DNA of 64,000 bases from the sequence record MK327932.1; one strand, given 5' to 3'. The notes under the pieces are model-generated. The model was not told where the DNA came from, did not search any database, and was given only the letters and a program-made list of their open reading frames with translations. The DNA comes from Escherichia phage vB_EcoM_G2248. Shown one piece after another: positions 12,117 through 54,635 of the stretch (its first letter is position 1; the number at the start of each line of letters is the position of its first letter). Position numbers and translations under genes: made by a program.

Positions 12117-12594
12117 CTAAATCATTGCAGTATTTTAGTGCCTTAGTTTGAAATTCTGCGCTGTTAAGTTCTTCATAACGGTCATAATCACCGTTTAATG
12201 CTGCCTTTCTTGCTTCTTGCTCTATCTGCATGTCAGACATGATAATACAGCGATCCCGTGCTTTCAGCTTCTCAAGTTGTATAGACTCTTCTTTCTGTTT
12301 GCGCAATTCTTCTTGACGCTTCTTTTCTTCTCGTGCTTTCTCTTCCCGCGCTTCTTTGATTGCATCCTTGAACATCTGCGTTTGTGGTGCTAAACCAACT
12401 TTAACGCGATCCACGTCTCGACGTTCCATTTTAGAAATAAAGCATGATTCGATCTGATCATCACTTGCATATGCTGCTTTACATTCACGAAGCAAGAAAA
12501 CCGGATCTGATTTAGCATTCATCATAGCTTCCATGTTGGCACAACCAGTAAGCATGAATGCAGCCGCAAGACCAATCAGTTTAATCATTTTCAT
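12109..12594 (-). CDS. predicted lipoprotein with coiled-coil region
   Basis: N-terminal signal peptide with lipobox LTGC; E/K-rich helical middle. Confidence 0.6.
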   Translation of the reverse strand: MKMIKLIGLAAAFMLTGCANMEAMMNAKSDPVFLLRECKAAYASDDQIESCFISKMERRDVDRVKVGLAPQTQMFKDAIKEAREEKAREEKKRQEELRKQKEESIQLEKLKARDRCIIMSDMQIEQEARKAALNGDYDRYEELNSAEFQTKALKYCNDLAK

Positions 12595-13415
12595 TTAGTC
12601 ACCTCACCGAAAATTGTAAATTGTCTACGATTCTCATCGCCGAAAGATTCTACTACGTCGTTTACCTTGACGCAAGTCCCGCGCGGTAAAATTACTTCAC
12701 ATTCGCAAGGATTCCATGCAATTGACCCAACAACAAAACCTTTATGATCTTTTACGTCAATTACCCATGATACATTACAAGAATGTTGCATCTTTCCGGT
12801 CATTGATTCATATCGATTCTCACAATAAAGGCTAGTGCTGTTTGATAGCCATCCTCCAAAGATGATCGGTGTCATGCTGGTCGATACAAAGTTTTTAAAG
12901 GTAAACTCCTTATCTTCAATGATGCGCTCTATTGTCTGAATGTCAAGATGTTGACCGCGATAAAGAGTACCGTTTAACTTTTCGGTTTTATCCATGACAC
13001 AATCCATCAAATCAACAATCTCTGATATCTCATCGGTCATGTCTTCTTCCCCTAAGAGAGCACCATTTACCCATTCGTATTGTTCAGATACATAATCACA
13101 GATTGCATTATATTCTGCTGGGGTTATGTTGTTATGTTTGTAATGTTTGAATACATTATCTCCAAAGTCTTCGGAGTGTACTTCATACATCACATTAATG
13201 ATTTTCTTGACAAATCCATAATCTTGTGTCTCGCGCTCAAGGAAGCGGATAACCTTCACATAATCATCAAAGTTAATCTGATCGCTGATCATCTCAGTGA
13301 TCATGTAACCATTAATACCCTCAATGTCATATGTTTCGATGTAATTATCCATACGTTCCATCATTGATTCGCGTGATTCTTCTGAAAGACGAAAATCCTG
13401 TAATTTCTTGAACAT
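12591..13415 (-). CDS. Alt-like ADP-ribosyltransferase paralogue (short form)
   Basis: Shares the C-terminal catalytic signature of the adjacent Alt: YRG..., FKNFVSTS..., ECEVILPRG versus Alt YRG, FKNYVSTS, ECEILLPRG. Confidence 0.75.
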   Translation of the reverse strand: MFKKLQDFRLSEESRESMMERMDNYIETYDIEGINGYMITEMISDQINFDDYVKVIRFLERETQDYGFVKKIINVMYEVHSEDFGDNVFKHYKHNNITPAEYNAICDYVSEQYEWVNGALLGEEDMTDEISEIVDLMDCVMDKTEKLNGTLYRGQHLDIQTIERIIEDKEFTFKNFVSTSMTPIIFGGWLSNSTSLYCENRYESMTGKMQHSCNVSWVIDVKDHKGFVVGSIAWNPCECEVILPRGTCVKVNDVVESFGDENRRQFTIFGEVTK

Positions 13416-13436
13416 TTTAAACCTCCCATATAACAG

Positions 13437-13469
13437 AAAACGGGGCTAGTATAAAACTAGTCCCCGTTT
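13437..13469 (-). terminator. hairpin between alt and the Alt-like paralogue
   Basis: AAAACGGGGCTAGT-ATAAAA-CTAGTCCCCGTTT; U-rich run on the minus transcript. Confidence 0.5.
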
Positions 13470-13493
13470 GAGTCAACCATTATTTCTTAAAAA

Positions 13494-15545
13494 TTACATT
13501 TTAAATTTATCTGGCATTGCGTCTACAGATACCAGATCAGCGATAAGCTGACGTAGAGTTGCCTTATCTGCTTTCTTACGTTCGGTTTTAGCTTCGCTAA
13601 TGAAGCTGGAGAAAGACAGGTCAGAAGCAGGTTTAACAACACCTTCACGGATGAATGCATCACCGTCCGCGATCATCTCGCCAGATTCTTGTAATGCTGC
13701 CAGTTCATTTTTGTTCATAATATGTGCCTCAATGTAATAAGTTTCTTGTGAATCCGTCGATGCCGTAGCACGAGTTACCGTATCAAAGGATAACACAACA
13801 CCGCGAGGAAGTAAAATCTCGCATTCTTTGTAAGCAAATGCTTTGTTACCTACTGGCAAGACAGGGATGTTTTCCGCGCCAGCAATGGAGAAAGCAACAT
13901 TAGCGCCACCTTCACCGCGAGAGCCAGCCATAGAATCAACACCAGCAACGGCACTAGCCACGTTTGCATTCCAGCCGCCAAAAATGTTAGGTGCAAGGGA
14001 AGTGCTCACATAGTTTTTAAAGTAAAACGCTTTTTGCTTACGTGCAGTTTCCCACATTTGCGACCGGAAGTCCATACCACGATACAGAATAGTACCCGGA
14101 TCAAGTTTAACGCCATAGTTGGAGAAGGCATTATCCAGTGCATCGCACATCTTGACCAATTCTTCTGGATCTGAGATGCCTTCAAACTCTTCCAGCTTAC
14201 GATCAGTTAGGAAGTTGTTCATATTGATGTATGCTGCATCGGCATATTCGCTCAACACAAAACCTTCCGCGCCTGGCAGATCAAGATCAATATCTGCCAT
14301 CATTTCACCCATGTTACTAGCAATTGCTTCAAACATACCGGAAGCAACATTACGCAGGGCATCGGTTTTAATCTGGGTGATATGACTACGCAGCATTTCA
14401 GCTTTTACATCTGCTGGCATAGACTGGTCTACTCGATCCATTGCCAGGGCGGTGATCTTGTTTTCGAATACTTCCTCGCTCATGATTTCTTTTAAGCGTT
14501 TGATTGATGCTGCGATAACTTCCGCAGACAACGGATCATATTGATCCTGAACTTTTACCAGTTCGCTTACTGCGTATTTTGCATCGGCTTCGCTTTCAAA
14601 AATAGTACGCATGAAACCATAGCGAGTGATAATATCACTTGTCCAGTCATTCAGAGAACGGGCGGTTGAACGTTCTAAGGCTTGACGATCAATCAGAGTA
14701 TTAAACTGTTTCTTAGGTTCGGCTTCGGTGATATCTTCTTCCGGTTTAAGATTAATTTTTTCTGGATGATTCACATAGTCGCTGTTATAGGTCGCTTGAG
14801 TTTTCAGCATTTCTTCTTTAGTCAAACGAGATTTAGCCGCTACGCGTTGTTCCGCTTCCGCGTTTCGTTCTTCTTCTGACACCAGACTAGCCGCATACGC
14901 CTCATCTTTAGTCAGAGATTCACCAGTAGCCTTAGATACCCAGCGATCACCTAAATCACTTTCTACTTTAGTGAACAAGGAATCATCAAGTTTAATCCCT
15001 TTAATCTTATCAATCGCCATACCGCGACGCTTGACAACAACTAAAGCGATCTTTTTGCTGGTCATTACTTCCTGCTGGAATACTTCAAACTTCGGTGTAC
15101 GACGCACCAAACGCTCTATAACGCGCTTAACCAGTTCGGTCTTACCTTTCATGCGGGATACGTTAAAACGGAACATAACAGCGTCTAATTGCGCTTTACG
15201 GGCTGTTTCCATAACCACATCAAAAGCACTTGCCATAACTGCAATCGGGTTATCGCCTAGACCATTTTTAAGCTGTACAATACGACCGCTTTTGTTCATT
15301 TCGCACAGTACAACATGTGCGGTCTTGTCACCCATACGAATGATTTTAGGTGTTTTGTTGGTGAAGTTACAAAGACGGACAATCACATCTTTATCGCGTG
15401 TCTGTACTGCAAAAAGCTGTTTAGGATTCTGCTTAGGCTTTAAGCACTGTACCGGAGCAATACTGCCAAAGTTTTCTTCCTCTTCCGTCAACAGCCATTT
15501 CTCGAAAGATTCAATCATTAGATCGTCGATTTCTAAGTTAAACAT
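13494..15545 (-). CDS. alt: Alt ADP-ribosyltransferase (packaged, modifies host RNA polymerase in T4)
   Basis: 683 aa (T4 Alt ~682); R-S-ExE catalytic motifs; position after gene 54 as in T4. Confidence 0.85.
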   Translation of the reverse strand: MFNLEIDDLMIESFEKWLLTEEEENFGSIAPVQCLKPKQNPKQLFAVQTRDKDVIVRLCNFTNKTPKIIRMGDKTAHVVLCEMNKSGRIVQLKNGLGDNPIAVMASAFDVVMETARKAQLDAVMFRFNVSRMKGKTELVKRVIERLVRRTPKFEVFQQEVMTSKKIALVVVKRRGMAIDKIKGIKLDDSLFTKVESDLGDRWVSKATGESLTKDEAYAASLVSEEERNAEAEQRVAAKSRLTKEEMLKTQATYNSDYVNHPEKINLKPEEDITEAEPKKQFNTLIDRQALERSTARSLNDWTSDIITRYGFMRTIFESEADAKYAVSELVKVQDQYDPLSAEVIAASIKRLKEIMSEEVFENKITALAMDRVDQSMPADVKAEMLRSHITQIKTDALRNVASGMFEAIASNMGEMMADIDLDLPGAEGFVLSEYADAAYINMNNFLTDRKLEEFEGISDPEELVKMCDALDNAFSNYGVKLDPGTILYRGMDFRSQMWETARKQKAFYFKNYVSTSLAPNIFGGWNANVASAVAGVDSMAGSRGEGGANVAFSIAGAENIPVLPVGNKAFAYKECEILLPRGVVLSFDTVTRATASTDSQETYYIEAHIMNKNELAALQESGEMIADGDAFIREGVVKPASDLSFSSFISEAKTERKKADKATLRQLIADLVSVDAMPDKFKM

Positions 15546-15586: not shown

Positions 15587-15614
15587 AAAACGGGGCTTAA
15601 CGCCCCCTTTTATT
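15587..15614 (-). terminator. rho-independent terminator closing the early gene array upstream of alt
   Basis: Minus strand reads GGGGGCG-UUAA-GCCCCG followed by UUUUCAU. Confidence 0.55.
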
Positions 15615-15825
15615 ATAATGCACCAGCAAGCAATTGCTCTAAGGTGTATCCTGAATAGTCTTTTTCAATCAGGGTATATTTTCCTACTCGTTTAATCCAG
15701 CCACGCATTTCAACGTATTCTGCGTAGTTGATGGTACGAGTTGTTCCATCTTCTAGCAAAGCAGTACCGATTTCGTTAATGCGGTCATAAGTTACGTCGG
15801 TAATGATGATTTCGATGTTAGCCAT
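15613..15825 (-). CDS. hypothetical early protein
   Basis: 70-aa ORF behind a promoter cassette (-35 TTGACA at 15885-15890 on minus strand). Confidence 0.5.
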   Translation of the reverse strand: MANIEIIITDVTYDRINEIGTALLEDGTTRTINYAEYVEMRGWIKRVGKYTLIEKDYSGYTLEQLLAGAL

Positions 15826-15896
15826 TTGATACTCCTTAGTAGTTCGTTTCGGTATGGGTGTATTATGATATACACCCTCTGTTATGTCAACAACTT

Positions 15897-16076
15897 TTAG
15901 AACATTTTTGAAATTAATTCTGCTTTGATTTCGCAGAGAACATCTAAAGATTTCTCGTCACCCGCTTTTGCTGCTTCTGCTTGCATTTTTGAAATGGCTT
16001 CAATCTCAGTGCAATTATAAGCCGCTTGAACTTTAGCGATTGCGATGATTGCCGATTCGATGGTTAAGTGTTTCAT
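15897..16076 (-). CDS. hypothetical small helical protein (59 aa, not in ORF track)
   Basis: Manual translation MKHLTIESAIIAIAKVQAAY...; preceded by conserved GGAGAATCAAAC leader and promoter cassette. Confidence 0.45.
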   Translation of the reverse strand: MKHLTIESAIIAIAKVQAAYNCTEIEAISKMQAEAAKAGDEKSLDVLCEIKAELISKMF

Positions 16077-16108
16077 GTTTGATTCTCCTTTCGTTTCGGT
16101 ATGTGTGC

Positions 16109-16137
16109 ATTATAGGGGATCGGTGACCCCCTGTCAA
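16109..16137 (-). promoter_or_regulatory. sigma70-type early promoter cassette (example)
   Basis: Minus strand TTGACA (16132-16137), 17-nt palindromic spacer GGGGGTCACCGATCCCC, TATAAT (16109-16114), then conserved leader with GGAGAA RBS. Confidence 0.7.
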
Positions 16138-16144
16138 CAACTTT

Positions 16145-16663
16145 TTAGTTATTTTTTAATTGTTCATCTTGCAATAATGCAATCACATGCTGGCGATGTT
16201 CTTCCGATTGAGGCACACCGAAAAAGTTTGTTTTGTAGAAATACTCTAATCGGTCTTCTCGTGTGCTCTCTTCCATCATGATCGCGGGTAGTCCGAGATT
16301 TCGGAAACGTCGCTTTTCTGCTGGCGTAAAATCACTGTAATACAACATAGAATCATCATTACCAGCAATGCTAAACTCATCATTCATGAAGGAGAATATT
16401 GCGTTTAAACGCTGTTTACCGTCCACGATTTCGATCTCATAGCGAGAGCCATCATCAATCTTAGCCATTGCGATAGCACCAACCGGAAAATCATTAATCA
16501 GGTTTTCGATAAACATACGTTTGTTTTCGGTGTCCCATACCAAAGGACGCTGATAATCTGGGTTCATGTTGATATATCCATCTTCTAACCACGCCTCATA
16601 AACAGAGATGACAAAGTTTTTAGTATTGGTATAGTAACGGCGTTTAGGCGTTAAACGGTTCAT
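16145..16663 (-). CDS. DUF262 / ParB-like domain protein (GmrSD N-terminal-domain-like)
   Basis: Motifs DYQRPLVWD and IVDGKQRL typical of DUF262; start moved to ATG at 16663 (MNRLTPK, RBS AGGAGA), 172 aa. Confidence 0.6.
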   Translation of the reverse strand: MNRLTPKRRYYTNTKNFVISVYEAWLEDGYINMNPDYQRPLVWDTENKRMFIENLINDFPVGAIAMAKIDDGSRYEIEIVDGKQRLNAIFSFMNDEFSIAGNDDSMLYYSDFTPAEKRRFRNLGLPAIMMEESTREDRLEYFYKTNFFGVPQSEEHRQHVIALLQDEQLKNN

Positions 16664-16664
16664 G

Positions 16665-16997
16665 TTATAGTCTCCTGAATGGATCATCACGTAAATCAAT
16701 ATCTTTTAAGAACTCATCCCATGAATGGCGGATATTGTTCTTAATTCTCCAGATAAGCGCAGGGATTGAACGCTCTCCCATCTGGAAGTATGGATCATAT
16801 GATCCGTATGCCCAATATGCTACTACAATTCCACAATCAGCGCAATAGTATTCTATTTCACTTGCTGGCGACCAAAGTCCATCAATATGATCGGTGATCT
16901 TGCTTTCGATGTTATGGCTATGACAATCAGGGCAACGGATGCAATGACCTTGTTTATCGTAATTTGACGTTAGCGAATACTTAAACAATCTCATCAT
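16665..16997 (-). CDS. zinc-ribbon protein
   Basis: CxxC...CxxC (CIRCPDCHSH ... YCADCG); translationally coupled to both neighbours. Confidence 0.55.
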   Translation of the reverse strand: MMRLFKYSLTSNYDKQGHCIRCPDCHSHNIESKITDHIDGLWSPASEIEYYCADCGIVVAYWAYGSYDPYFQMGERSIPALIWRIKNNIRHSWDEFLKDIDLRDDPFRRL

Positions 16998-17710
16998 AGA
17001 TCCTTATTTGCTTCAAATACTGCCTTTGCGAATCCTCGCGGGGTAAGTGACCTGATAGTCTTTGTTTTCGTTCCTTTCCCGCCTAGCTTAGAATGCTGTT
17101 TACTGTACCCTTTATTAATCTGCAAAGGTTTCTTTTCTGGCATTATAAAGCCTTGTCCGGTCCATAAGCAAGTCTTTTTCGGGTACATATCACGGGCGGC
17201 AATATACTCAGGAAAAGTAGGATGTTTATCATCTTCCGGCAAATAACCGCCATATTCCCACGGATGGAACATATAATCAGGCTTACGCCACATGCTAGAG
17301 ATAACGCTTACAGGATTCTCTATCATGTAGGGAACTCCTAGCCATTCACCCAAATAAGCGGTTATTTTAGCTGCCCTTACATCATGAACTTGAATCAATG
17401 GTCCTTGCTCTCGTTTCTTTCGTTCAAAGTGTGCAGCGCCACTAACAGCTAAATTGGTGCACGGTGGGAATGCAAAGATAATATCCGGTTTCCCCCATTC
17501 AAGGTCCATTGCTCTTTCCAGCCAGTTCAAATCAATCCATGTGTTTACATAGGTAATGTTTGGATGTTCAAATCGGGTATTATACTTTTTGTATGTACCG
17601 TGGTCGCCATCGTCAGCATTAAAGCAGATCACCTTATGACCTGCTTTAGCCCATTCTAACCCCATTATCCCCGATCCGTCAAAGTTGCAGAATATTAATT
17701 TTTGTTTCAC
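16994..17710 (-). CDS. minimal C5-cytosine methyltransferase-like protein (no obvious target-recognition domain)
   Basis: Motif I-like FDGSGIMG, motif IV-like FPPCTNLAVSG (Pro-Cys), motif VI-like IENPV, C-terminal RSLTPRG resembling the LTPRE motif; only 238 aa. Confidence 0.55.
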   Translation of the reverse strand: MKQKLIFCNFDGSGIMGLEWAKAGHKVICFNADDGDHGTYKKYNTRFEHPNITYVNTWIDLNWLERAMDLEWGKPDIIFAFPPCTNLAVSGAAHFERKKREQGPLIQVHDVRAAKITAYLGEWLGVPYMIENPVSVISSMWRKPDYMFHPWEYGGYLPEDDKHPTFPEYIAARDMYPKKTCLWTGQGFIMPEKKPLQINKGYSKQHSKLGGKGTKTKTIRSLTPRGFAKAVFEANKDL

Positions 17711-17958
17711 GCTGCCCCCATTGGTTTGATAGTAACAGAATCTAAAAGACCTTTGTTAGCCAGTTCGCGGCAAGTTTTCAGATCCGCAACTTCCCAGCCA
17801 GCCGCAATCAGGTTGTCAATGAGGCTGTTAGCAACTTCTTCGCTCATGAAAGAGCACTGTTTGCCGATGGTGTAGCGTACACGCTGTAATTTCAGTTTAC
17901 GGAAGCCTTTAACGTTCAGGTCTTTAGCGATTTTCTTTGCGGTTTCGATGTTAGCCAT
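17707..17958 (-). CDS. hypothetical early protein
   Basis: 83 aa, promoter cassette upstream (TTGACA at 18022-18027 minus). Confidence 0.5.
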   Translation of the reverse strand: MANIETAKKIAKDLNVKGFRKLKLQRVRYTIGKQCSFMSEEVANSLIDNLIAAGWEVADLKTCRELANKGLLDSVTIKPMGAA

Positions 17959-18041
17959 TGTTTGATTCTCCTAAGTGGTATCTCGTCTTGATGGTTGCAT
18001 TGTAGGGGAGTTATCCTCCCCTGTCAACACTTTTTATAAAA

Positions 18042-18209
18042 TTATTTGTTAATTTCTGGTGCGTTGCTAGGATAGTAACCTTCTTTAACTCCGAGGTATT
18101 TCGCAACCATCCCTACAATCTTCTGTGCTACTACAATGTCAAATTTCAGATAATCTTCGCCGTGGGTTTCAATGATATATGCTTCACATGCTGCTTTAGT
18201 CTCGAACAT
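18042..18209 (-). CDS. hypothetical 55-aa protein, copy A of a duplicated gene (not in ORF track)
   Basis: Manual translation MFETKAACEAYIIETHGEDYLKFDIVVAQKIVGMVAKYLGVKEGYYPSNAPEINK; near-identical to 21322..21489. Confidence 0.6.
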   Translation of the reverse strand: MFETKAACEAYIIETHGEDYLKFDIVVAQKIVGMVAKYLGVKEGYYPSNAPEINK

Positions 18210-18285
18210 TTTGATTCTCCTATTTCGTTTCGGTATGTGTGTAGTATAGGGGATCTCCCGATCCCCGTCAACAACTTTTTTAAAA

Positions 18286-18567
18286 TTATTCGTGATTAGT
18301 TTCGATGTTGTGCATTTTGCACCAGTTCAGCCAATCACCCAGATCCTGATAGTTAATGCTTTTATCTGCTGCCATCGTTTTTGTCTTGATACCCATATGT
18401 GCGTTATGAGTAAGCATTTTTACAGTGAACTCGATTTTATCGCCTTTAGCTTTAACATCAACCAGTTTGGTCCACTGGCTACCAGCGCCGCGAATGTTCA
18501 TGCCAACGATGTTTCCGATGTATGCTTCTTTGTTTTTCATGATTTCGGTTGCTTTGATGAATTTCAT
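18286..18567 (-). CDS. hypothetical early protein
   Basis: 93 aa, own promoter cassette. Confidence 0.5.
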   Translation of the reverse strand: MKFIKATEIMKNKEAYIGNIVGMNIRGAGSQWTKLVDVKAKGDKIEFTVKMLTHNAHMGIKTKTMAADKSINYQDLGDWLNWCKMHNIETNHE

Positions 18568-18636
18568 TTTTGATTCTCCAATTCGTTTCGGTATGGGTGT
18601 ATTATGCTATGTTCTTACTTTGGTGTCAACAACTTT

Positions 18637-18906
18637 TTAGATATTTTCAGAAATAAATTTTAAAACTTGACGTAAATGTTTCTCATCTTTGATAGTCGCC
18701 GGAAGTTCTTCTTTTACTTCTTGTGCAAGATAGATATTTCCGTTCCAAGTGAAAGATCCGTCTTCGTTTACGCGATAGCTGAACATCCACTCGCAATCAT
18801 TTTCGATTTCATATACACACAGAAGGGTGTAATCGTTAAAGCTATTGATTTCAAGGTCGAAGCCGTGACGTTTTGCAAAGTTGGTAGTGGTTTTAGTCAG
18901 TACCAT
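18637..18906 (-). CDS. hypothetical early protein
   Basis: 89 aa, own promoter cassette. Confidence 0.5.
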   Translation of the reverse strand: MVLTKTTTNFAKRHGFDLEINSFNDYTLLCVYEIENDCEWMFSYRVNEDGSFTWNGNIYLAQEVKEELPATIKDEKHLRQVLKFISENI

Positions 18907-19032
18907 TGTTTGATTCTCCTAAGTGGTATCTCGTTTCGATGGTTGTATTATGCTATACACAGGATCTGGTGTCAATACCTTTTTTAAAAATTTTGGCAAT
19001 AAAAAAGCCGACACTAAGGTCGGCTAATAAAA

Positions 19033-19341
19033 TCAACGAGATAGATAATCGTTTTGCGCGATCTGGTCGGCGTATGCTGGTGTTACGTCAATCGCCAGCA
19101 CTTTAACGCGTGCTTTCTTGCGACCTGGGTTTTCTCGTAACCAGTGCTCATGACCGTGAACATTTTTATACTGCGATGCTTCTTCGAAGGTACGGATCGG
19201 ACCTGGGTAATCAGCGTAAAGGATCTCTAGATCTTCGGTGATGTAAAAATATACATCGTAATTGCTGTTCTCTAGCTTAAGCAGAGACTTTCGGAACATT
19301 GGGAGATTTTCGCGGGTAAATTCAAAGATATTATCTTTCAT
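19033..19341 (-). CDS. gp30.3-like family protein (paralogue 1)
   Basis: Conserved core HGHEHW...VKVLAIDV shared with five other ORFs in this region. Confidence 0.55.
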   Translation of the reverse strand: MKDNIFEFTRENLPMFRKSLLKLENSNYDVYFYITEDLEILYADYPGPIRTFEEASQYKNVHGHEHWLRENPGRKKARVKVLAIDVTPAYADQIAQNDYLSR

Positions 19342-19397
19342 AGTATTATCCTCAATAGTTGGATGAAAAGGGGGGGGGGGGCTTAATGCCCCGTATA

Positions 19398-19685
19398 TTA
19401 AAACAGTCCTTCCTGTACACCGTAGTAGAGTTCATCGCTGATAATTTCATTAATGCGACGGTGTGCATATTCCTGATTTGCGAAGTTGTCAGCAAGTTCT
19501 ACTTTAGTTTCGCCGTCATGAGTCCATTTAGTGATAACTTTACCATCTGCAAATTTGAAGTTGAACTCTTTAGCTACCGCATCGCGTACCAGACGTGCAA
19601 ACTTATTGTTGCGGATTGCATTGTCGGTTTCGTGTGCAGCGTGAGCGAATTTGTTAACTTTCAGAGTGATAGTAATGTATGCCAT
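19398..19685 (-). CDS. hypothetical early protein (AKEFN family, paralogue of 22949..23260)
   Basis: Shares VRDAVAKEFNFK segment with VRKALAKEFNTK in 22949..23260. Confidence 0.5.
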   Translation of the reverse strand: MAYITITLKVNKFAHAAHETDNAIRNNKFARLVRDAVAKEFNFKFADGKVITKWTHDGETKVELADNFANQEYAHRRINEIISDELYYGVQEGLF

Positions 19686-19766
19686 AATTTGATTCTCCTA
19701 GTTAGAAAGTGTATCTCGTTTCGATGGGGATATTATGCTATATCCCCGATCCGGTGTCAACACTTT

Positions 19767-20045
19767 TTATAAAATAATTTTTTGATATTTTTCTATGATG
19801 TTCGTGTAAGTCACATCAACCGCTAGCACCGTTGCTTCGAATCCACCGTTTAGCCAATGGCTATGATCATGATCGTGAAAGAAACCTAGACCAGTACGAA
19901 GACCTTCTTTATATTCTGCGCGTACATTCAGTTTGTCGTCGATAAACAGATAAAACCATGAATTTTTACTAGGATTGATGATACAACCTTTCAGATTAGG
20001 GAGAATATCACGACTAAGAATAAACTTATCACCTACTTTGAACAT
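19767..20045 (-). CDS. gp30.3-like family protein (paralogue 2)
   Basis: HDHDHSHW...TVLAVDV; start moved to internal ATG (MFKVGDKF, RBS GAGGA) to remove overlap with neighbour. Confidence 0.55.
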   Translation of the reverse strand: MFKVGDKFILSRDILPNLKGCIINPSKNSWFYLFIDDKLNVRAEYKEGLRTGLGFFHDHDHSHWLNGGFEATVLAVDVTYTNIIEKYQKIIL

Positions 20046-20059
20046 AATATTTTCCTCAC

Positions 20060-20368
20060 TTATAAAGTTTGACCGTTGTTTTTCGCGTAATGCTGAATGC
20101 GTGCTTGATCTGCTTCCGCTGGTGATAGATTCCATGCGATCACTACAACTTCTGGCGCATCATGATCATTATCACTTACCCAATGATTATGATTCATACA
20201 ATTGTTTGCTATCGCGTGAGCAAATGATCTCATTACCGGAGACGTATAATCATAGTAACGGATTTTCAGATTTTCATCAACGTACAAGTAGATCGTATAC
20301 GGCTTATATTCAGTAACCAGTAACAGACAGTTACGCAATTCTGGGAAAATCTTTTTAGTTAATTTCAT
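20060..20368 (-). CDS. gp30.3-like family protein (paralogue 3)
   Basis: NHNHW...VVVIAWN; start moved to MKLTKKIF (RBS GAGGA). Confidence 0.55.
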   Translation of the reverse strand: MKLTKKIFPELRNCLLLVTEYKPYTIYLYVDENLKIRYYDYTSPVMRSFAHAIANNCMNHNHWVSDNDHDAPEVVVIAWNLSPAEADQARIQHYAKNNGQTL

Positions 20369-20369
20369 T

Positions 20370-20588
20370 TTATAATCCTCGGTCGCGGCTATAGTACACG
20401 GTACGCCATACAATTTCATGTTTCGTGTCGCTCCAGCACACGATCTCATTTACTCTTAAATCTTTGTTATCAACAAAAGATGAACATTGTGACGCTTCTT
20501 TCATCATTTTATCTGCTGTTTTCTCATCAAATACAGCACAGATTTCTTTATACACTCGATAATCTTTGAATTGACTCTGGATACCCAT
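20370..20588 (-). CDS. hypothetical protein, tandem paralogue of 20591..20800
   Basis: Both contain FKDYxxYxxIxxVxxxxxAxKMMxxASxCxSF; track start is GTG, ATG at 20588 preferred. Confidence 0.45.
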   Translation of the reverse strand: MGIQSQFKDYRVYKEICAVFDEKTADKMMKEASQCSSFVDNKDLRVNEIVCWSDTKHEIVWRTVYYSRDRGL

Positions 20589-20590
20589 AA

Positions 20591-20800
20591 TTAACACCAC
20601 TCAAGAGTTTTTGAAAACACATCTATCCATTGTTGAGTATATGCGGTTTCTTTCCATGAGACAATACCAGTAGAATAATGGTTTTTGTTTCCAGAAAAGG
20701 ACGGGCATTTTGATGCATCTTCCATCATCTTTTCGGCGAACTCTGGTTCGTATACTCGCAAGATCTGTTGATATGCTTTATAATCTTTAAATTTGCTCAT
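20591..20800 (-). CDS. hypothetical protein, tandem paralogue of 20370..20588
   Basis: 69 aa, ATG start. Confidence 0.5.
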   Translation of the reverse strand: MSKFKDYKAYQQILRVYEPEFAEKMMEDASKCPSFSGNKNHYSTGIVSWKETAYTQQWIDVFSKTLEWC

Positions 20801-21065
20801 AATCGTTAACTACCTTATCAGCTTCTTTTATTGTTTTTACATCAACTGCGATAACCCGTAAAGGTTCGTCATGGTTCCACCAATGATCGTGAATATCGGC
20901 TTGTGATTTATCACCAAAGGAATCACGAATATCATTTTTACATTTATAGCTAATGTGACCGTCATAGTCAACATAAAGGTAATTATCGAAAATCGGCGTT
21001 TTTAAGATCATACCGAAAAATCTTTCTTTGTGTGTCTTATCCAGCGTTGCAGTAATTCGCATCAT
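20787..21065 (-). CDS. gp30.3-like family protein (paralogue 4)
   Basis: HDHWWNHDEPLRVIAVDV. Confidence 0.55.
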   Translation of the reverse strand: MMRITATLDKTHKERFFGMILKTPIFDNYLYVDYDGHISYKCKNDIRDSFGDKSQADIHDHWWNHDEPLRVIAVDVKTIKEADKVVNDYEQI

Positions 21066-21077
21066 AATATATTCCTC

Positions 21078-21257
21078 TTAGAAAGGGATGGTCATTTCTT
21101 GAGCTTGTACATTCTCGTTAGGATTAAACTTCATCCAACCGATATTGTCTACCAGCATATGTACATTTTTATCATATCCTACTTGAGTAGTCAACACTAA
21201 ATGTGCTTTACCTTCAACGATGATTTCCATGTACTTCTGAACTTCGATAGCTTTCAT
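21078..21257 (-). CDS. hypothetical small protein (59 aa, not in ORF track)
   Basis: Manual translation MKAIEVQKYMEIIVEGKAHLVL...; conserved leader/RBS upstream. Confidence 0.45.
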   Translation of the reverse strand: MKAIEVQKYMEIIVEGKAHLVLTTQVGYDKNVHMLVDNIGWMKFNPNENVQAQEMTIPF

Positions 21258-21321
21258 TTTGATTCTCCGTTTGTTGTCTTGATGGGAGTATCTTACTACT
21301 CCCTTTAATCATTGTCAACGA

Positions 21322-21489
21322 TTATTTGTTAATTTCCGGTGCGTTGCTTGGATAGTAGCCTTCTTTAACACCCAGATATTTTGCAACCATTCCGGTGATC
21401 TTCTGTGCTACTACGATATCGAATTTCAGGTAGTCTTCACCGTGGTTTGCTACAATGTATGCTTCGCATTCTGCTTTAGTCTGGAACAT
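21322..21489 (-). CDS. hypothetical 55-aa protein, copy B of duplicated gene
   Basis: MFQTKAECEAYIVANHGEDYLKFDIVVAQKITGMVAKYLGVKEGYYPSNAPEINK; track ORF begins 12 codons earlier inside the promoter leader. Confidence 0.6.
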   Translation of the reverse strand: MFQTKAECEAYIVANHGEDYLKFDIVVAQKITGMVAKYLGVKEGYYPSNAPEINK

Positions 21490-21523
21490 TTTTGATTCTC
21501 CTATATCTCGTTGGTATGTGTGC

Positions 21524-21553
21524 ATTATAGGGGATCTCCCGATCCCCTGTCAA
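21524..21553 (-). promoter_or_regulatory. sigma70-type early promoter cassette (example)
   Basis: Minus strand TTGACA-GGGGATCGGGAGATCCCC-TATAAT, then leader ...GGAGAATCAAAA-ATG. Confidence 0.7.
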
Positions 21554-21562
21554 CAACTTTTT

Positions 21563-21898
21563 TTATTCTTTATACGCATATTTCATAAATTTGTCTGCTA
21601 CTTCATCGGCATGTTCCGATTCTACGCCGGATTCGAGAACAATAGCAAGGTCGGTTTCGTCGTGACCTTCGTACCAGTGATTATGTGTGTCGTTTGAATC
21701 AATATAGAATTTATCACCTTCGTAAGTTCGAGCAAATACATCTAAATTCTCGTCGATGTAAAAGATCCAATCTTCATAAAGAATAACCGTATTAGCCAGA
21801 TTTTTATTGCCTTCAACGAAAGGTTCGACTACAAACAAATTAGTATTTTCCTCAAAATTATACAGCTTCGTAAACTTCCCAATGTTCAGCGCCAACAC
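21563..21898 (-). CDS. gp30.3-like family protein (paralogue 5; start uncertain, no in-frame ATG)
   Basis: THNHWYEGHDETDLAIVLES core; track start is GTG and overlaps the upstream gene. Confidence 0.45.
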   Translation of the reverse strand: MLALNIGKFTKLYNFEENTNLFVVEPFVEGNKNLANTVILYEDWIFYIDENLDVFARTYEGDKFYIDSNDTHNHWYEGHDETDLAIVLESGVESEHADEVADKFMKYAYKE

Positions 21899-22049
21899 GC
21901 TTAACGAAAAGGTTTTCTTTGATGTTATTCATAAACGTCTGGATGGATTTAATGCGGTTGGAAGGTTTCCAGTCTTTGTTGGCATTGCGGCGATACATAA
22001 TAATATTACCAGTTCGCTTATATTCAGCAACCATTTTAAGACCACACAT
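21858..22049 (-). CDS. hypothetical small basic protein
   Basis: 63 aa, ATG with strong RBS GAGGA. Confidence 0.5.
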   Translation of the reverse strand: MCGLKMVAEYKRTGNIIMYRRNANKDWKPSNRIKSIQTFMNNIKENLFVKRVGAEHWEVYEAV

Positions 22050-22105
22050 AATATTATCCTCAATTTGTGGGAGAGTATTACCCTCCCGATTATTGTTATA
22101 CTACA

Positions 22106-22408
22106 TTACGCAAAATGGCGTGTCAATGCTTCTTTTGCTGTTCCGCTAAGATTCTCGATCTCTCCTGGCATAACATCAACCGCCAGAACTTCTACAACAT
22201 CCTCTGATCCTAACCAGTGAGTATGACCTTTGTAGAACTTGATATCCCATTTATCGCTATCGCTAGCCCACCACACATCACCGTCTATAAAGTTGATGTA
22301 AAGCACACTACGACACATTGAATTAGTTACTTTCAATACTGCGCCTTTCATCTCTTCCACGGTATGGTCTTCCATTTTGAAGACCTCGCCTACCTTAACT
22401 TTTGCCAT
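22106..22408 (-). CDS. gp30.3-like family protein (paralogue 6)
   Basis: GHTHWLGSEDVVEVLAVDV; start moved to MAKVKVGEV so the gene abuts the upstream stop. Confidence 0.55.
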   Translation of the reverse strand: MAKVKVGEVFKMEDHTVEEMKGAVLKVTNSMCRSVLYINFIDGDVWWASDSDKWDIKFYKGHTHWLGSEDVVEVLAVDVMPGEIENLSGTAKEALTRHFA

Positions 22409-22409
22409 G

Positions 22410-22676
22410 TTACATGCTCCGAATATGTTTAGATGCATCTTCCAGTTCGTCGATAGTGACACTGTGAGCCAGTAAGTGTACTGGTTGTGGTTCTTCACCT
22501 TCCATAGTATTGATCAGATGACCGTTTCCTGGGTGGAATGTATCGTTGCCGTTCCAAATAGCATACACATCATCTTCTGTTACGTAGATAATAAGTCCAA
22601 TCGGTGATTCTGGTAATTGAAAAATTTTACCCACTGCATCTTTGCGATTGTTTACGATATCTTTTACTGTCTTCAT
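22410..22676 (-). CDS. hypothetical early protein
   Basis: 88 aa; C-terminal PVHLLAHSVTIDELEDA loosely resembles the 30.3-like core. Confidence 0.5.
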   Translation of the reverse strand: MKTVKDIVNNRKDAVGKIFQLPESPIGLIIYVTEDDVYAIWNGNDTFHPGNGHLINTMEGEEPQPVHLLAHSVTIDELEDASKHIRSM

Positions 22677-22695
22677 TTAGTTACCTCTCGTTAAA

Positions 22696-22875
22696 TTACA
22701 TCACAATCACGCCAGCCGTTGAAAGTTGATGTTTCAACTGAGCATTTTCTGCTACTGTCAAATCAATGATTTCTTGTGACGCTGCAATCATATAGCCATT
22801 GGTGATATTGTTTTGCATCAGTTCAATGGTTTCTTCGTTGTAGCGGATTTTAGCGATGATTTCGTTGAAGTTCAT
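22696..22875 (-). CDS. hypothetical small helical protein
   Basis: Start moved to MNFNEIIAK after the GGAGAATCAAAC leader; 59 aa. Confidence 0.5.
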   Translation of the reverse strand: MNFNEIIAKIRYNEETIELMQNNITNGYMIAASQEIIDLTVAENAQLKHQLSTAGVIVM

Positions 22876-22948
22876 GTTTGATTCTCCTAGTTCGTTTCGG
22901 TATGTGTGTATTATAGGGGAGTTTAACCTCACCTGTCAACAACTTTTT

Positions 22949-23260
22949 TTAAAGTTTTTCCATGATAACGGTCATAATTACATCTTCTGCGCGAGCGGTC
23001 AGATTATCAGCGTCAGTATGTGGGCGGTTGGTTGTTACAGAGATAACACCGTTGCGCACTGGTTTGATATTGATATCAAGATGATCCGCGAAACGTTCGC
23101 CAGTTACAGAATGAATTTTGGTGTTAAATTCTTTTGCCAGTGCCTTGCGAACTTCACGAATCAGGATAGCGTTTTTCAGTTGGTTCTCCGCGCTCATGGT
23201 CTTCTGGGTGTTCATGGTTCCGTCGAAGTCAATCATTGGCAGCGTTACGATGTATTTCAT
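22949..23260 (-). CDS. hypothetical early protein (AKEFN family)
   Basis: Start moved to MKYIVTLP after the conserved leader; 103 aa; paralogue of 19398..19685. Confidence 0.5.
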   Translation of the reverse strand: MKYIVTLPMIDFDGTMNTQKTMSAENQLKNAILIREVRKALAKEFNTKIHSVTGERFADHLDINIKPVRNGVISVTTNRPHTDADNLTARAEDVIMTVIMEKL

Positions 23261-23289
23261 TTTTGATTCTCCGTTTAAGAAAGTGTGTT

Positions 23290-23369
23290 TCGTTTTGATG
23301 TGTGTAGTATAGGGGATACGTGATCCCCTTCGTTTTGATGTGTGTAGTATAGGGGATACGTGATCCCCT
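23290..23369. repeat. perfect tandem duplication (2 x 40 bp) of a promoter core
   Basis: TCGTTTTGATGTGTGTAGTATAGGGGATACGTGATCCCCT occurs twice back to back (23290-23329, 23330-23369). Confidence 0.85.
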
Positions 23370-23387
23370 GTCAACAACTTTTTTGAA

Positions 23388-23732
23388 TTATTTTTTCATG
23401 AGCTTAATGGCTTCTTCCATAGCCAGCACATTTCGATAGTTAGGGTATCGTGTTAGATCGTCATACATTCGCTTAAGGGTGGAAACTTCCTCAAACTCTG
23501 GGTTTTCTAGATATAGTTGAACAAATTGTTTCTCTACCATCTCGGCTTTTAGCTTGTCTGCTTGTTCCTGTTCATATGATTTCGTTGGACCCAACACCAA
23601 CAAAATGATAAAGGTGATCAACGGGCTAATGATCAATGATAGGATAACATAACCGATAACGCTACGGTTTAAACGGCTTGCGTACATGCCTACCAGGAAA
23701 ACAAAAAGGATATAGATAAACAGAAAGAACAT
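23388..23732 (-). CDS. small membrane protein (two predicted TM helices)
   Basis: Hydrophobic N-terminus MFFLFIYILFVFLVGMY ... ILSLIISPLITFIILLVLG. Confidence 0.5.
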   Translation of the reverse strand: MFFLFIYILFVFLVGMYASRLNRSVIGYVILSLIISPLITFIILLVLGPTKSYEQEQADKLKAEMVEKQFVQLYLENPEFEEVSTLKRMYDDLTRYPNYRNVLAMEEAIKLMKK

Positions 23733-23739
23733 ATAATGG

Positions 23740-24213
23740 TTACTCCTTATTTTCGCGCTCGTACTTTTCGAAATAAAATTCTACTGGCTGGTCATGAATT
23801 GACAGCAAGCCAAAGCGTTTAGCCGCTCGCAATCCCATATTGCGCTGAATGTACTTCTGGAAGTTCTCGCGTATACACTTACGCCAGTATTCTAAGCCCA
23901 TACAGCTTTTATAAAGATTGCATTGCACACACGCCGGATTCATGTTATCAAGTATATCATGTTCCGGTTTATGCATTCCTACAACCTTATACTTCCACGA
24001 TCCATCATCATTACGGGCAATTCGTCCATTTTCATCATAGACTACCTTTGAGCGTCGCAATACTGGTTTGATGTGGTCTGCGTGCCAGCGATCCCCTAGT
24101 TCCTCGCCACAATAGGCACAACGTCCACCATATTTCATTTTCAGGATCTGGCGTTGCTCTTTCTTTGACAATTTTTTAGGTTTAGGGGCTTTCGCCCCTT
24201 CATTATCACACAT
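23740..24213 (-). CDS. HNH endonuclease-like protein
   Basis: CAYCGEEL...HADHIKP...N...CVQCN arrangement (CxxC, HxxH, second CxxC). Confidence 0.6.
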   Translation of the reverse strand: MCDNEGAKAPKPKKLSKKEQRQILKMKYGGRCAYCGEELGDRWHADHIKPVLRRSKVVYDENGRIARNDDGSWKYKVVGMHKPEHDILDNMNPACVQCNLYKSCMGLEYWRKCIRENFQKYIQRNMGLRAAKRFGLLSIHDQPVEFYFEKYERENKE

Positions 24214-34060: not shown

Positions 34061-34228
34061 TCACTTTTTAACACAAAAGAACTTAGTATTTCTGTTAACT
34101 TCGCTATCCTGCTGCAATTCCTGCACAGCTTCAAAACAATTTTGATGTGATGAAAACTCTACGCTGGTAACAGTTCCTTTATTATATAATCCTACGCTAA
34201 CGGAAAGCAATAACCATATTGTAGCCAT
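34061..34228 (-). CDS. small protein with hydrophobic N-terminus (55 aa, not in track), paralogue of 34228..34401
   Basis: MATIWLLLSVSVGLYNKGTVTSVEFSS...; TAATG overlap with next gene. Confidence 0.45.
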   Translation of the reverse strand: MATIWLLLSVSVGLYNKGTVTSVEFSSHQNCFEAVQELQQDSEVNRNTKFFCVKK

Positions 34229-34401
34229 TAGTTCACCTTCTGCTTTTCAACACAGTACAGATTCATAAAGCGTTTATTGTCTTCGCGGATAATCTCGCGA
34301 GCTTTAACGCAATCCTGCTTTGTTGCAAATTCAATGCTTGACATATTTCCGTAATTATACATTGAATTGCTGATTGCAATCAATAACCATACAGTAGCCA
34401 T
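34228..34401 (-). CDS. small protein with hydrophobic N-terminus (57 aa, not in track)
   Basis: MATVWLLIAISNSMYNYGNMSSIEFAT...; TAATG overlaps on both sides. Confidence 0.45.
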   Translation of the reverse strand: MATVWLLIAISNSMYNYGNMSSIEFATKQDCVKAREIIREDNKRFMNLYCVEKQKVN

Positions 34402-53728: not shown

Positions 53729-54025
53729 ATGGGATATTGGTTCGGTAGTGAAATTAATACTAAAATTGATGCTTTAAAGTGGCATGTTTTTGATATTCCT
53801 AATGGATATGTTCCCGGACGTGCTGGTGTTGCCGTTTTGCGGCATACCGCTCGTGATGGTTGGGGCGATATGCATATTTTCGTTGACGGTGTGGTCGCCG
53901 CGCGTCGTCGTGGTGGTGGGGATTGGGGATTTACGGTTAATGCGTTTGTTCCTGCTGGATGTACTGTCACCTTTGGTCATGGGGGTGTCGGTGGTATTGA
54001 ATACTTTAAATTTATGGAGTTTTAA
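53729..54025 (+). CDS. Gly-rich small protein, paralogue 1 of 3 (gene 38 position)
   Basis: 98 aa, RBS AAGGA; shares W..DIPNGY/W core and GGG(G)D block with next two ORFs. Confidence 0.6.
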   Translation: MGYWFGSEINTKIDALKWHVFDIPNGYVPGRAGVAVLRHTARDGWGDMHIFVDGVVAARRRGGGDWGFTVNAFVPAGCTVTFGHGGVGGIEYFKFMEF

Positions 54026-54027
54026 TT

Positions 54028-54333
54028 ATGGCTGGATGGGTTGCTGGAAGAATGGCTAATGCCATTAGCATTTATGCTAATGGTGGGTGGTTTGGTATCC
54101 CTAATGGTTGGGTGGCTGATTCATGCGGTATTGTGTCTGTTCATGCCGAAGCCGTTGGTGGCGGTGGGGACCTGGACGCAGAATTATATGTAAACGGTAC
54201 TCTCGAATCAGGTCATCACGCTGGTAATGCAGGAAGTTGGGGAGCAAGTTCTTTAGTTGGTGCTGGCGCTACTGTCAGTTTTAGTATTGGTAAAGGAAGT
54301 TTAAACCACTTCCAATTTAGGAGAATGCAATAA
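54028..54333 (+). CDS. Gly-rich small protein, paralogue 2 of 3
   Basis: 101 aa, RBS GGAG; WFGIPNGWVAD, GGGGD. Confidence 0.6.
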   Translation: MAGWVAGRMANAISIYANGGWFGIPNGWVADSCGIVSVHAEAVGGGGDLDAELYVNGTLESGHHAGNAGSWGASSLVGAGATVSFSIGKGSLNHFQFRRMQ

Positions 54334-54635
54334 TGGCATTTTGGGTAGATGGTGCTTTAGGTAATAGAGCAGGTAAAGCGAATCAAGGATGGTTTGATAT
54401 TCCTAACGGTTGGACACCTGACGCTTTCGGCACGGTTTCATTTGGTGCTCATTCTTCTGGTGGTGGCGGTGGTGACTCAGAATTGCTTTTGCATGGCTTT
54501 TGTGTGTCTGGAAGTCATAAGGGTCATGATTGGGGACAGATCCATTCTTGTATTGTGCCGCAGGGAGTAACGATCACGGTAACTACAAACAGGGGTATTT
54601 CCCATCTTCGTTATAGACGCTTGAGCAACCGTTAA
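54333..54635 (+). CDS. Gly-rich small protein, paralogue 3 of 3
   Basis: 100 aa, RBS AGGAGAA; WFDIPNGWTPD, GGGGGD. Confidence 0.6.
   Translation: MAFWVDGALGNRAGKANQGWFDIPNGWTPDAFGTVSFGAHSSGGGGGDSELLLHGFCVSGSHKGHDWGQIHSCIVPQGVTITVTTNRGISHLRYRRLSNR

Follow-up and report, generated by a model that had tools for sequence, protein, structure and literature searches.

How does a strictly lytic phage come to carry, and keep, two copies of one very small gene a few kilobases apart? The question is raised by a locus in a 64,000-nucleotide (nt) stretch of Escherichia phage vB_EcoM_G2248 (sequence record MK327932.1; the whole stretch is called the window here), in which two genes for proteins of 55 amino acids (aa), copies A and B, bracket a block of accessory genes. 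The window belongs to a Krischvirus, that is, an RB49/phi1-like, T4-like coliphage of the family Straboviridae. Each copy is headed by a promoter-early stem-loop (PeSL). With a probability of roughly 80%, we interpret the pair as paralogous PeSL cassettes in the alt-to-ligase hyperplastic region that were copied long ago, kept by selection and reshaped by recombination. The two genes are:

18042..18209, minus strand: copy A, 55-aa gene, equivalent of RB49p191 by locus tags; phrog_8009 (E = 6.8e-38, positions 1-55/55)
21322..21489, minus strand: copy B, 55-aa gene, equivalent of RB49p205 by locus tags; phrog_8009 (E = 1.2e-38, positions 1-55/55)

The copies differ at 6/55 aa and 27/168 nt (83.9% nt identity). 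BLASTP gave 89% identity (E = 1e-34), and a repeat search recovered a 172-nt direct repeat with 84% identity, 3280 nt from start to start. From the AT-rich/-35 portion of the PeSL ahead of each copy, the similarity extends over the entire coding sequence (CDS) and ends just past the stop codon; the repeat unit of PeSL plus CDS is ~250 nt long, with 82-83% identity and longest exact runs of 22-37 nt. All six residue differences fall in predicted helices (positions 3, 7, 13-15 and 32), and the last 23 residues are the same in both proteins. When substitutions were counted by the Nei-Gojobori method, 20 differences fell on 33.7 synonymous sites (proportion of differences, pS, 0.59; substitutions per site, dS, ~1.2) and 7 on 131.3 non-synonymous sites (pN 0.053), with a dN/dS ratio of ~0.047. 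These values argue for an old duplication of which both copies are translated and constrained, and a pS of 0.59 rules out a recent one. By this substitution pattern, purifying selection has maintained both copies. Their products are predicted to be small early accessory proteins, and the sequence of each is fixed in its own form: among the eight relatives compared, identity is 98-100% for the A type, a range that also applies to the Krischvirus records retaining this copy, and 100% for the B type, despite synonymous variation.

The first-pass annotation, made from the letters of the window alone, had described the pair as a near-identical coding duplication with about six differences, and had proposed comparing synonymous with nonsynonymous changes and consulting related phages. 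The duplication is real, and the six differences are those between the 55-aa proteins. "Near-identical" is apt for the proteins and not for the DNA, in which ~59% of synonymous sites differ. Both open reading frames (ORFs) lie where they had been placed, on the minus strand: the quoted peptides come exactly from that strand, and translation of the same coordinates on the plus strand gives nonsense. Copy A was, as had been said, missing from the ORF list, and it is indeed shorter than 60 aa. Copy B was listed as a 67-aa ORF only by way of an in-frame ATG within its promoter; the real start is at 21489, after GGAGAATCAAAA. The gene is thus identified as a true sub-60-aa gene, and the spurious N-terminal extension of copy B is corrected.

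PeSLs were described for phi1 and RB49, in which their promoter strength and terminator activity were assayed (PMC2839356), and were extended to other T4-like phages (PMC4122927). In the island around the pair, a composite element of this kind precedes nearly every gene or short operon. Its order is the stop codon of the previous gene within an AT-rich tract, AAAGTTGTTGACA, a GC-rich palindromic spacer of 17-18 nt, TATAAT, a conserved leader and GGAGAATCAAA-ATG. The -35 block AAAGTKGTTGAC occurs 17 times in the window versus 0.8 expected, and the Shine-Dalgarno (SD) block GGAGAATCAAA 16 times versus 1.9 expected, all on the minus strand; 11/16 of the SD blocks lie within 15.8-23.3 kb. The spacers fold into stem-loops with predicted energies of -13 to -15 kcal/mol. 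The PeSLs around the two copies are:

18210..18285, minus strand: PeSL upstream of A, with AT-rich tract, -35 TTGACG (18271-18266), spacer GGGATCGGGAGATCCCC, -10 TATACT (18248-18243), leader, GGAGAATCAAA and ATG at 18209; predicted fold -13.9 kcal/mol
17959..18041, minus strand: PeSL downstream of A, the putative promoter of the 83-aa gene 17707-17958, with TTGACA, spacer GGGGAGGATAACTCCCC and TACAAT
21490..21562, minus strand: PeSL upstream of B, with TTGACA (21553-21548), spacer GGGGATCGGGAGATCCCC and TATAAT (21529-21524); predicted fold -15.4 kcal/mol
21258..21321, minus strand: degenerate PeSL downstream of B, with TTGACA, a stem GGGAGTA..TACTCCC overlapping the -10 TAAGAT, and GGAGAATCAAA before the ATG of gene 21078-21257

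The published components are therefore all in place at the pair. The sigma-70 boxes read TTGACG-17-TATACT at A and TTGACA-18-TATAAT at B, the AT-rich tracts TAATTTTAAAAAAGTTG and TAAAAAAAGTTG precede A and B, respectively, a stem-loop spacer (GGGGATC-GGGA-GATCCCC) stands between -35 and -10, and GGAGAATCAAA(A)ATG is present at both copies.

The abundance of these elements bears on the proposal that the similarity is that of a shared regulatory element only, or that the ORFs are not real genes. Many spurious listed ORFs do share peptides such as "HTYRNE", which are translated PeSLs. At the pair, however, identity spans all 168 coding bases as well as the upstream promoter, most differences fall on synonymous sites (20/33.7 versus 7/131.3 non-synonymous), PeSL-free homologues occur in siphoviruses and on a lambdoid-type contig, and the protein has a PHROG family. 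The first-pass annotation had named similarity confined to promoter or leader as the outcome that would undo its claim; the synonymous/non-synonymous pattern excludes that explanation, to which we give next to no weight.

The surroundings of the pair vary greatly among relatives. The 7.6 kb around it matched 63 phage records, all RB49/phi1-like and 92-97% identical, with very uneven coverage (59%-99%). The island is flanked by an Alt-like ADP-ribosyltransferase gene (13494-15545) on one side and by HNH and DNA ligase genes (from 23740) on the other, and all of its genes are on the minus strand. Gene content differs among relatives: 15/26 genes (15613-24213) are absent from at least one of eight relatives or swapped there for a far more divergent allele (60-85% identity), which fits the published hyperplastic region HPR3. 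The presence/absence matrix and the chimeric PeSL junctions in Brandy, JK32, UPWr_E1, Cognac and FL04, described below, agree with a hyperplastic location.

The 55-aa gene was found by tblastn in 58 Krischvirus records, with two copies in 51/58 and one in 7/58; no genome examined had adjacent copies or more than two. This distribution bears on tandem duplication by unequal crossing-over, after which cassette insertions would have moved the copies 3.3 kb apart. The same block does hold a tandem paralogue pair (20591/20370), members of the H-x-H-W protein family described below adjoin one another, and PeSLs would permit unequal exchange. This route nevertheless needs ten genes inserted between the copies, adjacent or supernumerary copies were seen in none of these genomes, and the PeSLs downstream of A and of B are unrelated in detail. 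We regard it as highly improbable.

The single-copy genomes carry footprints of recombination at the pair. They concern the following segment:

18286..21257, minus strand: block of 10 accessory genes bracketed by A and B; absent, together with one repeat unit, from Cognac and FL04

In Cognac, the one copy lies directly between homologues of genes 21563 and 17707, all ten intervening genes being gone; the segment deleted in Cognac and FL04 measures 3.28 kb. At diagnostic sites, the Cognac copy is B-type through promoter and leader and A-type from SD/ATG onward. FL04 has the same 10-gene deletion with the B-to-A switch further upstream, between -35 and leader, and since the crossovers differ, this is taken as a second, independent event. 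In Brandy, JK32 and UPWr_E1, copy A is absent and a single chimeric PeSL stands in its place: everything from the AT tract to the -10, including the -35 and the stem-loop, is that of the upstream PeSL of A, and the leader is that of the downstream one. MIZ4 and MIZ5 have the B type only.

Exchange between the copies has also left smaller traces. Copy B of Brandy contains a run of A-type synonymous sites, B-type sites appear towards the 3' end of both copy A of G2494 and the single copy of Cognac, and the B PeSL of the window has an A-type loop, in contrast to the other loops in the B PeSLs of the relatives examined. These synonymous patches and mosaic loops are best read as putative gene-conversion tracts between the copies. 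On the strength of such sequence comparisons, the process visible in relatives appears to be PeSL- and repeat-mediated homologous recombination, comprising deletion, cassette loss and gene conversion.

The published experiments on PeSLs point the same way. PeSLs have been described as recombination hot-spots, and reversible mini-circle insertion has been proposed (Arbiol 2010, PMC2839356); recombination between PeSLs has been proposed as the source of indels in hyperplastic regions (PMC2839356). The published RB49 crossovers lie between -10 and ATG or between SD and -10 (PMC2839356), positions with which the junctions found here agree. The RB49 "band H" mini-circle consists of ORFs 191-194 (PMC2839356) and therefore includes copy A, the equivalent of RB49p191. 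RB49 ORFan210, the equivalent of which is 22949-23260 in the window, was shown experimentally to form PeSL mini-circles (PMC2839356).

The PeSL upstream of 22949-23260 contains an exact 40-nt tandem duplication (23289-23368, minus strand), so that the stem-loop GGGGATCACGTATCCCC and the -10 TATACT, with some of the leader, occur twice. With a 191-nt query over the duplication, the full-length matches, all among the best 40 of 58 related records, span only 151 nt, which indicates a single unit in those listed relatives; the duplication thus appears private to this phage. In the counterpart PeSL211/210, the stem-loop terminates transcription, and mini-circle crossovers were mapped within this PeSL (PMC2839356).

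The next question is which copy came first. The closest known relative of either copy is the other one: they are 89% identical, versus at most 83% to any other homologue, and they have H16 in common where P0003, swi2 and P0005 have Y16. P0003 is a homologue with 83% identity on a Logan contig (L010, SRR5584643), and swi2 is a Swiduovirus. At positions 3, 14 and 15, copy A has the majority residue of these three outgroups, and at position 7 copy B does; with three of the six outgroup residues in A versus one in B, B looks more derived. P0003 lies directly downstream of a phrog_6147 homologue that is 41% identical to window gene 18637-18906, and overlaps its stop codon, an arrangement resembling the neighbourhood of copy A. 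Outgroup residues and distant-contig synteny together favour A as the original locus. Copy A, adjoining the phrog_6147 gene, is thus probably the original and B a derived copy at another PeSL. The two-gene operon on L010 (4723-5165) is preceded by a terminator-promoter and followed by a PeSL-like TTGACA element, and the adjacent genes encode PHP and 2-hydroxyacid dehydrogenase domains.

The same evidence bears on a Campbell-type insertion, in which a circle from a co-infecting relative, carrying a diverged allele and the 10-gene block, would have integrated at a resident single copy and made both flanking copies at once. A pS of 0.59 does far exceed the divergence of orthologous copies in the eight Krischvirus relatives, direct repeats bracket an accessory block that two phages lack, and insertion of mini-circles is part of the Arbiol 2010 proposal. 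The crossovers of Cognac and FL04, however, differ from each other as for two independent deletions and not as for a shared ancestral single-copy state, and both copies are present in 51/58 records. A and B share H16 and are mutual closest relatives, and the phrog_6147 gene, one of those in the block, also adjoins the 55-aa gene on the distant contig, so that the block cannot be called foreign to copy A. An origin by such an insertion seems unlikely.

Each cassette consists of a predicted strong early promoter of sigma-70 type, whose -35 and -10 are separated by a GC-rich stem-loop, a conserved leader with SD sequence, and an ORF. Under the preferred reading of ancient copying between PeSL sites, one such cassette would have been copied long ago to a second PeSL site by homologous exchange between PeSLs, possibly through an excised mini-circle or through unequal exchange in a concatemer. 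A and B form a direct repeat of ~250 nt and ~83% identity around 10 accessory genes, and phage recombination acting on this repeat and on the PeSLs appears to have exchanged synonymous patches, deleted the 3.28-kb block and removed cassette A alone.

Several points weigh against this reading. The direction of every indel is inferred; PeSL exchange is reversible, and deletion and insertion junctions look alike. The polarity depends on a few residues and one short metagenomic contig. The near-saturated synonymous divergence could mean that B was acquired from a diverged phage instead of arising in situ. The mini-circle, promoter and terminator experiments were made on RB49/phi1 PeSLs and may extend to this phage by analogy. 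As regards function, the 55-aa protein had no Pfam match, its family profile had no match among PDB sequences, and an exhaustive profile search of 1.84 billion representatives gave 9 matches, with 4 true homologue clusters and no informative distant relatives. The AlphaFold model, of low confidence (predicted local distance difference test score, pLDDT, 67), is a two-helix hairpin (residues 5-16 and 18-39) with a disordered tail.

What, then, do the homologues tell about the protein? The Krischvirus copies and P0003 have the same C-terminal tail, EGYYPSNAPEINK, which other homologues keep in part. Homologues with 70-72% identity occur in siphoviruses of 45-48 kb, namely Swiduovirus swi2 and Salmonella phages SeSz-2, D10 and Pu29; in swi2, the gene lies beside the terminase gene on the strand opposite to the surrounding genes. 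Another, remote homologue lies next after NinG on a short contig. This scatter points to a small, horizontally mobile accessory gene. That the protein might bind a host factor early in infection is a guess, held with low confidence.

The pair is part of a wider pattern, the region being an accessory island rich in paralogues, with four families in ~5 kb. The further members are:

20370..20800, minus strand: tandem paralogues, 20591-20800 (69 aa) followed by 20370-20588 (72 aa); both match phrog_8471 over the full length (E = 2e-33 and 6e-37)
19398..19685, minus strand: 95-aa gene, phrog_7474, remote paralogue of 22949-23260
22949..23260, minus strand: 103-aa gene, phrog_7474, equivalent of RB49 ORFan210
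19033..19341, minus strand: H-x-H-W member 1, 102 aa, phrog_9345
19767..20045, minus strand: H-x-H-W member 2, 92 aa, phrog_17255 (weak phrog_9345 match)
20060..20368, minus strand: H-x-H-W member 3, 102 aa, phrog_9345
20787..21065, minus strand: H-x-H-W member 4, 92 aa, phrog_15972
21563..21838, minus strand: H-x-H-W member 5, phrog_15965; canonical ATG lost by a 9-nt deletion, possible start TTG at 21838
22106..22408, minus strand: H-x-H-W member 6, 100 aa, phrog_16486
22410..22676, minus strand: possible divergent seventh H-x-H-W member, 88 aa; hhalign E = 8e-4, probability only 24%

All of these sets are older than the A/B pair, their members being 36-41% identical or only remotely related. 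The largest, recovered by an iterative hidden Markov model (HMM), comprises six proteins of ~90-100 aa with an H-x-H-W motif and a VLAVDV-like strand; its members detect one another by profile and are split by PHROGs into five families. The gene at 22410-22676 was rejected as a firm seventh member, having not been recovered by HMM iteration, and is kept as a possible one; an 88-aa JSE protein, which may be the orthologue of 22410-22676, matches the H-x-H-W model in BFVD (E = 6e-3). A profile search with the family gave ~90 clusters, none of which had Pfam domains, and all long contigs (>150 kb) that carry it are ~164-176 kb, the Krischvirus genome size. Against PDB sequences, the family profile returned noise only. 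In a Pfam scan of the paralogues, the sole match was a sub-threshold one of gene 19398 to Tox-ART-HYD1 (E = 0.06), which was disregarded.

Of the paralogue pairs proposed by the first-pass annotation beside A and B, 20370/20591 was borne out; the genes of 19398/22949 are both assigned to phrog_7474, and their relationship is too remote for a clear paralogue pair. Its list overlooked the six-member H-x-H-W family. Its description of a "duplication-prone accessory island" suits the paralogue content and the variable gene content among relatives and overstates current activity, the duplications being old.

Some of these genes show peculiarities of their own. At 21838-21871 (minus strand), relatives read GAGGAAATTACTATGGAACATACTAATTTG and the window GAGGAAAATACTAATTTG, a 9-nt deletion between ACTA repeats having removed the ATG of gene 21563; translation of this gene may begin at TTG 21838 or be inefficient, and the proteins of relatives match its product with only 69-85% identity. 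Genes 20370-20588 and 20787-21065 (minus strand) look like cases of allelic replacement rather than gradual divergence: for the 20370 protein, identity is 100% to RB49 and only 61-64% to six other relatives, and for the 20787 protein it is 95-99% to most relatives and 60% to GEC-3S. Behind gene 19398-19685, a GGGGC..GCCCC terminator hairpin is followed by a run of 12 C (19370-19381, minus strand), a homopolymer in which length variation or sequencing errors could occur.

How far does the locus resemble systems already known? It is a clear example of the published PeSL shuffling mechanism and not a new kind of system. With the published PeSL cassettes (PMC2839356; PMC4122927), it shares the phage genus and hyperplastic region HPR3, the composite motif of AT-rich tract, sigma-70 boxes, stem-loop, SD and ATG, indel junctions that are single chimeric PeSLs, and crossovers between -10 and ATG or in the stem-loop, as in the ORF192/ORF210 mini-circles. 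It differs in that homology runs on through a 168-nt CDS and that the resulting ~250-nt repeat brackets 10 genes, undergoes conversion and has mediated 3.28-kb deletions. The words "paralog", "tandem", "gene conversion" and "direct repeat" are absent from the text of PMC2839356 and PMC4122927, and "duplicat" appears there only in an unrelated methods sentence; a literature search found no relevant earlier description of these paralogues. The coding repeat around a 10-gene block, the two independent deletions, the A/B gene conversion and the six-member family are thus incremental additions to the PeSL papers.

The classical moron is an insert in a lambdoid late operon with its own terminator. 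Like morons and accessory early genes of tailed phages, the 55-aa gene is small, has its own promoter, is dispensable in some relatives and has homologues scattered in unrelated phages, but the Krischvirus gene sits, in two copies, in a dense array of similar early-strand cassettes. Integron gene cassettes are likewise small, mostly promoter-proximal ORFs that are bounded by repeated recombination sites and can be excised as circles; here, by contrast, there is no integrase and no attC/attI, general homologous recombination acts between promoter/terminator repeats, and each cassette has its own promoter. The poxvirus "gene accordion" resembles the locus in the recombination-mediated expansion and loss of accessory paralogues in a variable region of a lytic double-stranded DNA virus, whereas the copies here are old and diverged, not recent tandem amplifications, and show no sign of a link to a selective pressure.

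Neither a new mechanism nor a protein function is revealed by the locus. It offers a clean natural example of how small accessory genes can be copied, homogenised and discarded in a strictly lytic phage by way of promoter/terminator repeats, and of how a cassette, once duplicated, can provide recombination with a longer substrate and so switch a multi-gene block in and out. For annotation, six "hypothetical proteins" are grouped in one family, and genes dispensable in natural isolates are flagged, which is useful for the engineering of therapeutic Krischvirus phages. A tentative extension, which we think more probably wrong than right, is that the island is an arms-race locus in which early accessory families were diversified by PeSL-mediated copying into host or defence specificities, with the 10-gene block as an excisable and re-insertable module of ~3.3 kb. 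If so, the families concerned would be the two-copy 55-aa family, the six-member H-x-H-W family and the two further pairs, the module could pass as a circle between co-infecting phages, and the lineage-fixed differences between A and B in helix 1 (positions 3, 7 and 13-15) would reflect two target specificities.

Other features of the island and of the window were noted along the way. The 59-aa gene at 22696-22875 (minus strand; MNFNEIIAKIRYNEE...) stands out in the highly variable island, its protein being 100% identical in 8/8 relatives. The operon at 16145-17710 (minus strand) contains three genes without internal PeSLs, which encode a GmrSD_N/DUF262-like protein (Pfam E = 4e-20), a zinc-ribbon protein and a 238-aa protein annotated in relatives as DNA (cytosine-5) methyltransferase. 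Further paralogues in the window are a tandem triple of ~100-aa proteins (53729/54028/54333; 53729-54635, plus strand), a tandem pair of ~55-aa proteins (34061/34228; 34061-34401, minus strand), and Alt with a shorter Alt-like protein (12591-15545, minus strand).

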